From positions 17,532 to 81,531 of the IMG/VR virus record IMGVR_UViG_3300028648_000084: 64,000 nt of DNA, one strand, 5' to 3'. The translations under genes and the position numbers were made by a program. The notes under the pieces were generated by a model. The model was not told the origin of the DNA. It saw only the letters and a list, made by a program, of their open reading frames with translations, and searched no databases. The DNA comes from a virus. Shown in pieces: positions 1,871-2,012 of this stretch (positions are counted from its first letter, which is position 1; every line of letters starts with the position of its first letter).

Positions 1871-2012
1871 TCATTCGCAAACCCTTGCGAACGCTGGCCC
1901 ACCAACGCGAACGCCCGAACCTCTGGGTCCGGGCGTTCATCGTTTACCAGCGGGTCGGCTTCGGTCGAAGCCGGTCGCTTGAAGTAGAGGAAGTCGGACC
2001 GTTCTCGAAATC
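1871..2012 (-). ncRNA. Candidate structured non-coding element, copy A
   Basis: Three hairpins (1874-1891, 1909-1938, ~1951-1978) plus GAAGTAGAGG at 1981-1990; homologous to 18720-18860. Confidence 0.45.

Follow-up and report, generated by a model that had tools for sequence, protein, structure and literature searches.

The window analysed here, a stretch of 64,000 nucleotides, comprises bases 17532-81531 of an 85,891-bp virus record in IMG/VR. Its genes encode portal, capsid and tail-tube proteins and a 2663-residue Rhs-type protein, together with McrBC-like, restriction-modification and HTH/ImmA proteins. A 6.1-kb tail module is present twice in the window, the two versions being 83% identical. 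The record as a whole is a prophage array and contains three large serine recombinases (LSRs), each accompanied by a DUF2924 gene or the remnant of one. The recombinase operon of the largest unit, a 47-kb prophage, occupies 59733..62013 on the minus strand. As judged from Pfam matches, and from a synteny with the element described below that is kept in relatives, it consists of the DUF2924 gene (61492-62013), the LSR gene (60128-61594), whose product has 488 residues, and a gene for a protein of 132 residues (59733-60131). An open reading frame at 19040..19549, also on the minus strand, encodes a membrane protein with a weak Pfam match to Zn_ribbon_8. This zinc-ribbon gene is the last gene of a minus-strand tail/cargo operon.

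A structured non-coding element of about 140 nucleotides had been reported in an earlier note on this DNA at 1871-2012 and again at 18720-18860. Both copies are found at these positions, and a BLAST comparison of one with the other gives E = 2e-14. The first copy of the element, here called E, is matched by a covariance model at 1856..2003 (copy A, or c2; 119 bits, entered as unstranded) and aligns with the query at 100% identity in the search of its own genome. It contains a P1 region, two hairpins (P2 and P3) and an attachment (att) core, and lacks two further modules, U and B. P1 of this copy is a local hairpin, TTCGCAA/ACCC/TTGCGAA, at 1874..1891. P2, at 1904..1944 and assigned to the minus strand, has a 13-bp GC-rich stem (1909-1938) with an AACG/CGTT extension. 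P3, at 1953..1976 and likewise on the minus strand, is the hairpin CGGCTTC/GGTC/GAAGCCG, which in the folds is extended by GGT and its partner. The att core GAAGTAGAGG follows at 1981..1990, its TAG being at 1985-1987.

The second copy (copy B, or c3) is matched at 18706..18852 with 136 bits. Its P2 (18755..18795, minus strand) is a perfect 13-bp stem with the same AACG/CGTT extension and the loop TTGC, and its P3 (18803..18827, minus strand) is GGGTCGGTGG/CGTT/CCACCGGACCC with one bulge. The att core GAAGTAGAGG lies at 18830..18839 with TAG at 18834-18836. Upstream of this copy, at 18586..18650, is module U, which is composed of a hairpin, TAACCCGA..TCGGGTTA, and GAGACTCCGAGAC. Directly after the copy comes module B (18840..18929), a segment of about 100 nucleotides delimited by self-BLAST and alignment. 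When the two copies are aligned, the base of the P2 stem, GAACGCCCG/CGGGCGTTC, is invariant, and so is GAAGTAGAGG; the upper stems and the loops of P2 vary, and P3 differs in both sequence and length.

Several details of the earlier description were borne out. P2 of copy A has one A.C mismatch, which is a G-U pair when the minus strand is read, and on that strand the TTGC loop of copy B is GCAA. The 2-nt difference in length between the copies is an indel in P3. The last cargo gene had been placed some 200 bp away, and the nearest minus-strand genes indeed stop at 2207 and 19040, at distances of 180-195 bp. The copies had further been described as marking the left end of both prophage units. 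They do sit at joints between units, but the description is imprecise, the core TAG splitting the region in two: P1 to P3 with module U are the recombinase end of the left-hand unit, and module B is the cargo end of the unit to the right. In the free circular phage this recombinase end and module B would be contiguous and would form attP.

The record contains six copies of E on the same strand, two within the window and four outside, with GAAGTAGAGG anchors at record positions 2117, 3289, 9058, 19512 (copy A), 36361 (copy B) and 83541. All six are identical through GAAGTAGAGG and then split into differing far arms, sequence divergence setting in to the right of GAGG. The copy at record position 9058 has both hairpins in the same places despite little sequence likeness past the anchor. 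In three of the six the far arm is module B, which follows c1 and c4 as well as c3, and which also occurs once by itself, at record positions 4791-4897. Copy c4 is the E copy of the 47-kb prophage; it lies 3.9 kb to the right of the recombinase operon of that prophage, just beyond the window. Module B is the far-end (cargo-side, or P) arm of the 47-kb prophage to its right. Module U is found about 100 nucleotides upstream of three copies, in the general form of a hairpin TAACCnG..CnGGTTA and GAGACTnnGAGAC. It is homologous to an operator-like block of AGTCTC repeats and GGGTTAT in the interval between E and the recombinase operon of relatives. The unit adjacent to c3 has lost its recombinase operon, and beside c2 the operon is inverted.

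Homologues and conserved hairpins

A covariance model, R1, was built from nine copies of E. The genome search was centred on a Planctomycetota MAG (G001), whose phylum and order were sampled with 151 genomes each. R1 found E in 63 of the 151 genomes of this one order, at 1-7 copies per genome, and in 4 of the 151 genomes sampled across the phylum. The homologue set used below consists of 93 distinct copies. Many matches are at contig ends, and MAG contigs often break there. A pattern scan of genome contigs was too loose, giving 120 matches that were mostly due to chance, of which nhmmer kept two loci (L066 and L010). These two, singled out by the profile, are true relatives, one in a Planctomycetota MAG and the other in a MAG labelled Nitrospira. 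BLAST in its distant mode gave no match to E in a GenBank collection of phages. Two pattern scans of IMG/VR gave 0 and 29 matches, none of the latter being confirmed by R1, and no description of the element turned up in searches of the literature.

A short, structured, intergenic repeat at which many MAG contigs break could be a selfish dispersed host repeat of the REP or MITE kind that happens to sit in prophages. The distribution of E makes this very improbable: a genome with E has just 1-7 copies of it, the majority of the genomes sampled across the phylum have none, and neither terminal inverted repeats nor target duplications are present. Furthermore, the neighbours of E are constant, the recombinase region being on one side and the end of a tRNA or the far arm of a phage on the other.

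P2 and P3 are real conserved hairpins. When the 93 sequences are aligned to R1, P2 is 85-90% paired, with pairing in 85.5% of cells, and 11 of its 13 core pairs have changes on both sides. This level of covariation was reached by none of 500 shuffles, and the signal disappeared when the partners were slid by 1-3 columns. The non-Watson-Crick cells of P2 comprise 121 A.C and 67 G.U when read on the plus strand; in a tally of the per-pair table confined to the core stem the numbers are about 90 and about 10. Since an A.C on the plus strand is a G-U on the minus strand, this asymmetry indicates an RNA made from the minus strand. In agreement with this, folding stability favours the minus strand for P2 in 78 of the 93 copies (mean difference 3.6 kcal/mol, p = 5e-12).

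P3 is a hairpin of 5-11 bp in each homologue, mostly with a GAAA-containing loop when read on the minus strand, and it has a slight preference for that strand. Its stems occur in different registers, so that tools based on alignment fail: RNAalifold missed P3 on a nine-sequence MAFFT alignment and predicted nothing on 60 P3 segments. A comparison of folds with shuffled sequences was used instead. In 60 homologues the mean z score of the hairpin, taken as P3' on the minus strand, was -2.6 against dinucleotide shuffles, and 70% of the values were below -2.

P1 did not survive as a conserved helix. Its outer pairs are formed in only 37-55% of the 93 homologues and do not covary, the conserved part of the region being the loop sequence AAACCCTTGC. 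Of the three hairpins described in the earlier note, P2 and P3 are kept; P1 pairs in the window copies and is not maintained across the family. The unpaired segments GGTTAA, TTCTATCGC and AAACCCTTGC show more conservation than a plain terminator would require, which hints at a role in protein binding or pairing.

The suggestion, also made earlier, that the element could be a ribozyme found no support. Conserved hairpins and an invariant motif might be expected of a self-cleaving or otherwise catalytic RNA, but the att core accounts for the invariant motif, P1 does not covary, and neither a conserved multi-helix junction nor a pseudoknot was detected; nothing beyond the two hairpins forms a conserved core. 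Rfam 15 gave no matches at the gathering score in the whole window. With the threshold relaxed to E <= 5 over 18500-19000 there was no match either, the best sub-threshold score being 26 bits against a cut-off of 46. A catalytic RNA is the least credible of the readings considered here. Diversity-generating retroelements, integron attC sites, TnpB or IscB guide RNAs and IS110 bridge RNAs were rejected as well, since the genes scanned near the copies included neither a reverse transcriptase nor a recombinase of the matching kind.

The tRNA-Met junction and the attachment core

When reverse-complemented, the 3' end of the model in the main family, ...CAACTAGCGGGGGCAGGACTCGA, reads as the 3' terminus of a tRNA. 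At 15 of the first 34 loci, ARAGORN identified a gene for tRNA-Met(CAT) that meets E end-to-end and is encoded on the other strand. Among the 93 distinct copies, E adjoins the 3' end of tRNA-Met(CAT) in 38 and a non-tRNA arm in 55. One weaker relative adjoins tRNA-Asn. The anticodon stem of the tRNA-Met(CAT) contains three G-C pairs, position 1:72 is mismatched and CCA is not encoded; we take this tRNA to be of the initiator type.

Eight loci are colinear from the tRNA to the recombinase operon. Read on the tRNA strand, where the hairpins are written P3' and P2', the 3' end of the tRNA, ..CCCCCGCTA, is followed by GTTGAC, the hairpin P3' and CCGGTTAACGC, and then by the hairpin P2' and TTTCTATCGC. 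Next come the conserved P1 region (..CGCAAGGGTTTAGCG), about 100 variable bases, and module U with its operator-like repeats, which here are AGTCTCnnAGTCTC and up to three CCCGCGGGTTAT boxes. The order ends with a small conserved open reading frame, the DUF2924 gene, the LSR gene and a gene for a protein of 134 residues. With at least 2.5 kb of flank, a DUF2924/LSR homologue is present on the U side in 18 of 55 copies, at a median distance of 1.4 kb and in 17 of the 18 co-oriented with the tRNA; on the tRNA side of E it is present in only 3 of 52. Counting against the reading of E as an attachment arm, the operon is within 6 kb in only one third of the copies with enough flank, and neither window copy has it intact and in the usual orientation beside it. 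Flanks that lack the operon carry island cargo, such as RES toxin, HNH and Hen1 genes, IS elements and fragments of Rhs genes; one such flank has type VI secretion genes of the host.

In three genomes of the order E is absent and the same tRNA precedes unrelated trailers, which have canonical terminators composed of a hairpin and a U-run. At least one of the three sites may be occupied by another island, and they are read as absence of E and not as proven virgin sites. The occurrence of the same tRNA elsewhere with no E beside it, together with the linkage of E to the recombinase end, argues that E travels with the mobile DNA and not with the tRNA locus. We read E as the conserved, non-coding P' arm between the att core and the DUF2924/LSR operon in a family of temperate phages and islands of one Planctomycetota order.

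Alignment of 60 junctions on the tRNA strand leaves only C-TA invariant or nearly so. This CTA, which is the TAG within GAAGTAGAGG on the plus strand, is the sole stretch common to all classes of junction. To its left is either the acceptor strand of the tRNA or one of several phage far arms, including ..GGTTCCCTC and ..GCGTAGCGAGCCCCCGC, the latter of which makes a dyad with the core; to its right are trailers specific to each element. The sharing of CTA alone suggests that the crossover probably takes place within it, that is, at 1985-1987 and 18834-18836 of the plus strand in the two window copies. A crossover at this point would leave the tRNA intact at every step.

Joints of the form far arm-CTA-E are abundant, as the 55 of 93 copies without a tRNA show. 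A clean attR with a native host trailer was not found in a pattern search of the genomes. The attR pattern, TAGCGRGCCCCCGCTA with 2 mismatches allowed, gave matches at the level of the reversed-pattern control, and the only exact match to TAGCGRGCCCCCGCTA (in genome G176) is 2 Mb from the E of that genome. Two joints of a far arm and CTA with something other than E were found, and both led to a second recombinase element and not to host DNA. This element represents a second, distantly related LSR family at the same core, which starts with a short hairpin and GUUYGCGUUUC and whose recombinase gene ends directly behind that hairpin on the opposite strand. A tyrosine-integrase island probably uses the same core too.

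The position of E next to the crossover core, its linkage to the recombinase/DUF2924 operon and the conservation of its sequence motifs could also mean that E works purely as DNA, the palindromes being dyads or cruciforms bound by the recombinase, the DUF2924 protein or a directionality factor. A serine-integrase half-site is expected within about 25 bp of the core, and the 5' half of P3 and its loop fall within this distance. P2, however, is 45-100 bp from the core and thus outside the roughly 50 bp that integrases need; characterised serine integrases require only sites of about 50 bp and are not known to need arms. The stems vary freely in sequence with compensatory changes, which a sequence-specific dyad would not allow, and an asymmetry between G-U and A-C is unexpected for double-stranded DNA. 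An arm that acts only as DNA is therefore unlikely, although protein binding on DNA may have a part in the conservation of the unpaired segments.

Tandem arrays

E is very probably the recombinase-side attachment arm, repeated by tandem integration. The earlier note had offered, as one possibility, a recombination or attachment structure marking tandem integration, and this proposal is upheld by the tRNA-Met junction, the fixed linkage to the LSR and the tandem joints. Pairs of E on the same strand, 13-81 kb apart, are present in several genomes. In three of them (G280, G212 and G190) both copies of the tandem pair are accompanied by a recombinase of their own, or by a remnant, and the more complete element is the one whose copy lies beside the tRNA.

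Successive copies in the virus record delimit units of 1.1, 5.8, 10.4, 16.8 and 47.2 kb, which grow towards the presumed tRNA side. The intact prophage is on that side, and another Rhs-type unit begins at the contig end. Neither the window nor the remainder of the record yielded a tRNA with ARAGORN, so the anchor of this array is presumed and the window copies are taken to be internal joints of it. By their sequence, window copies with module B appear attP-like (far arm, core, near arm), as the joints of tandem related prophages should be. The gradient of unit sizes fits repeated insertion next to the tRNA: new elements would insert beside the tRNA, pushing the older units outwards, where they would decay with distance. 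Counted against growth of the array in this order is that we know of no characterised serine integrase that recombines attP with attL. Logan contigs of four DNA runs branch at module B, at 18892-18925. No excision joint was seen in these contigs, nor was the joint bridged in them by 31 nt on both sides. A look-up of sequencing runs containing the sequence yielded no RNA run.

The proposed role of the arm and its relation to known systems

Our preferred reading, to which we give a probability of roughly 0.6, is that E is an att-site arm whose hairpins P3' and P2' act in RNA as a trailer, terminator or insulator supplied by the phage. That the hairpins have this role we regard as an even bet or slightly better. 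The elements insert at the last bases of the tRNA-Met(CAT) gene, and E then takes the place of the former trailer of the tRNA. According to the proposal, a transcript of the tRNA strand (the minus strand of the window) would consist of the tRNA, 6 nt, P3', GGUUAA, the long GC hairpin P2' and a U-rich, interrupted tail. In the free circle, the late tail/cargo operon on the same strand would run through module B into P3' and P2'; in the window, it is the transcript of the zinc-ribbon gene that would enter module B and then the two hairpins. P3' and P2' would stop both the tRNA and the late transcripts short of the integration-control region. Elements that sever the tRNA from its own terminator would thus bring a substitute with them. 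The hairpin and GUUYGCGUUUC of the second LSR family at the same site support the idea of a replacement terminator.

As a terminator, P2' is of an unusual kind. It is a GC-rich hairpin of 13-17 bp on the transcribed strand, which is the first mark of an intrinsic terminator, and it is laid out like one: an A-rich segment precedes the long GC stem on its 5' side, and the tail UUUCGCGUUUCUAU follows. This tail of the family is interrupted and has no uninterrupted U-tract with at least 5 U in 8, and the tail of c1-c3, GUUGGUGGG, is poor in U. A consensus terminator scan did not call P2 on either strand in the window. P2' is therefore terminator-like at best and not a canonical member of the Rho-independent class.

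The earlier note's other proposal, an undescribed phage non-coding RNA, stands in part. P2 and P3 are conserved and covarying, with the G-U pattern of the minus strand, but a free-standing RNA gene is the less likely form, since E lies behind the tRNA and the late operon, a position that favours a trailer or terminator. It is conceivable, though improbable and slightly more so than the DNA-only arm, that a stable small RNA is released from the tRNA-Met precursor, like the RNAs from the 3' external transcribed spacers of tRNAs, and is made only when the element is integrated. Such an RNA would report or control lysogeny (integration, excision or immunity), for instance by pairing through the unpaired GGUUAA, UUCUAUCGC and GCAAGGGUUU. 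The G-U bias does put selection on RNA of the tRNA strand, the unpaired segments are conserved as much as the stems, two hairpins lie directly behind a tRNA gene that lacks CCA, and E survives in decayed units stripped of all else. Binding of a protein to the DNA would explain the unpaired conservation equally well, however, and the position also fits a simple terminator. If it did exist, the small RNA would be a built-in 'I am integrated' signal, and its persistence in decayed units would amount to domestication by the host.

Whatever the fate of the transcript, the attachment arm can be compared with several known systems. As in the att sites of the serine integrases of phiC31, Bxb1, A118 and TP901-1, an LSR gene is near the site, the core common to the partners is very short (here CTA), and the phage half-sites resemble the target, some far arms of E having the form TAGCGAG-CC-CCCGCTA. 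Unlike these sites, the E family targets the 3' end of a tRNA, has a structured arm of 130-300 nt (P2, P3 and U) between the core and the integrase operon, and is found in multi-unit tandem arrays. Accretion by tyrosine integrases at tRNA and tmRNA genes is similar in that insertion occurs at the tRNA 3' end, leaving the tRNA intact, and in that att-like joints are repeated, with the older units more decayed. In the E family, by contrast, the recombinase is of the serine class, the far junctions have no duplicated 3' segment of the tRNA, only CTA being common, and the repeat is the element's own arm and not a copy of the target.

The Ccr large serine recombinases of SCCmec likewise target the last bases of a conserved host gene, in their case the 3' end of rlmH. 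Composite and tandem arrays of SCCmec have repeats of the integration site at their boundaries and contain defence and cargo genes. SCCmec differs from the E family, which consists here of tailed prophages, in host phylum, target gene and type of element, and we know of no structured RNA-type arm like that of E described for SCCmec. Intrinsic terminators and functional tRNA 3' trailers of the 3'ETS-leuZ type share with E a GC-rich hairpin with A-rich and U-rich flanks behind a tRNA and selection on the RNA strand. They differ from E in its interrupted U-tract (UUUCGCGUUUCUAU), which fails the usual consensus scan, and in its two hairpins in series, supplied by a mobile element.

E is fairly ordinary prophage anatomy and not a ribozyme. 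It is real, conserved, structured and not in Rfam, and it is best filed as an att arm with a built-in RNA trailer or terminator that marks tandem accretion. The model R1 provides a boundary marker for widespread prophages and islands of the Planctomycetota and for their tRNA-Met hotspot, a place where MAG assemblies often break and where defence and toxin cargo accumulates. The family adds large serine recombinases that target the end of a tRNA gene with about three shared bases, which could interest users of integrases as tools. Finally, the strand-specific selection on the hairpins of the arm suggests that elements which cut a tRNA off from its terminator supply a replacement.

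Genes beside E and repeats in the cargo

The unit to the left of copy A of E, the repeated structured attachment-site arm, lies at record positions 9185-18128 (locus L127), immediately to the left of the window, and extends into window positions 1-1744. Its operon, which comprises DUF2924, the recombinase and a 134-aa protein, is inverted relative to the usual geometry; behind it come a type I HsdR, then a protein of 718 aa and an HTH/ImmA pair. Several relatives likewise have the 718-aa protein behind their recombinase operon.

Aligned loci of relatives (L129, L135, L137, L138 and L149) have a small conserved ORF (MPKHREDEHLSP..RRREVASILA..) between E and the recombinase operon. 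The same interval contains up to three CCCGCGGGTTAT boxes and AGTCTCnnAGTCTC repeats, and the whole resembles an operator-regulator set that would serve the integration genes. The local remnant of this block is at window positions 18586-18650.

A tail-gene module of 6.1 kb is present in two copies that are 83% identical (window positions 5674-11825 and 28587-34794), one in the intact prophage and the other in the 16.8-kb remnant. None of the proteins of this module has a Pfam match. About 30 tandem units of 18 bp are found within a phospholipase-like cargo gene (window positions 4615-5193).

tRNA targets and other integration enzymes

A weaker relative of E (34 bits) is placed likewise behind a tRNA-Asn(GTT) gene (L133, positions 15909-16044 of contig C13 in genome G001). 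The tRNA target has therefore been switched within the E family.

A second family of large serine recombinases, 25-28% identical to that of the record, has members in genomes G153 (L257, positions 96-1682, plus strand) and G176 (L255, positions ~1944-2744, minus strand). In both, the gene runs on the opposite strand to the same tRNA-Met core, which its 3' end overlaps or abuts; a short hairpin and GUUYGCGUUUC come directly behind the core. In a genome without E (L181, contig C23 of G154), tRNA-Met and its terminator are followed by an ORF beginning ..KKKVWWIKYYVDGRQ.., a start that resembles a tyrosine-integrase N-terminus. The same tRNA may also be the target of a different type of island.

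Persistence of E and breaks in assemblies

The outermost E of one array adjoins the host type VI secretion genes ImpA, VipA and VipB and is not accompanied by a recombinase (L165, positions 3226000-3245999 of contig C1 in G240). Evidently, E can survive the loss of the remainder of its element.

Many contigs of metagenome-assembled genomes (MAGs) stop at most a few hundred bases away from E (L188, L189, L193, L201, L213, L214, L218 and L220-L222). E is a frequent break point in such assemblies, and prophages at its tRNA-Met hotspot are therefore probably under-reported in MAGs.
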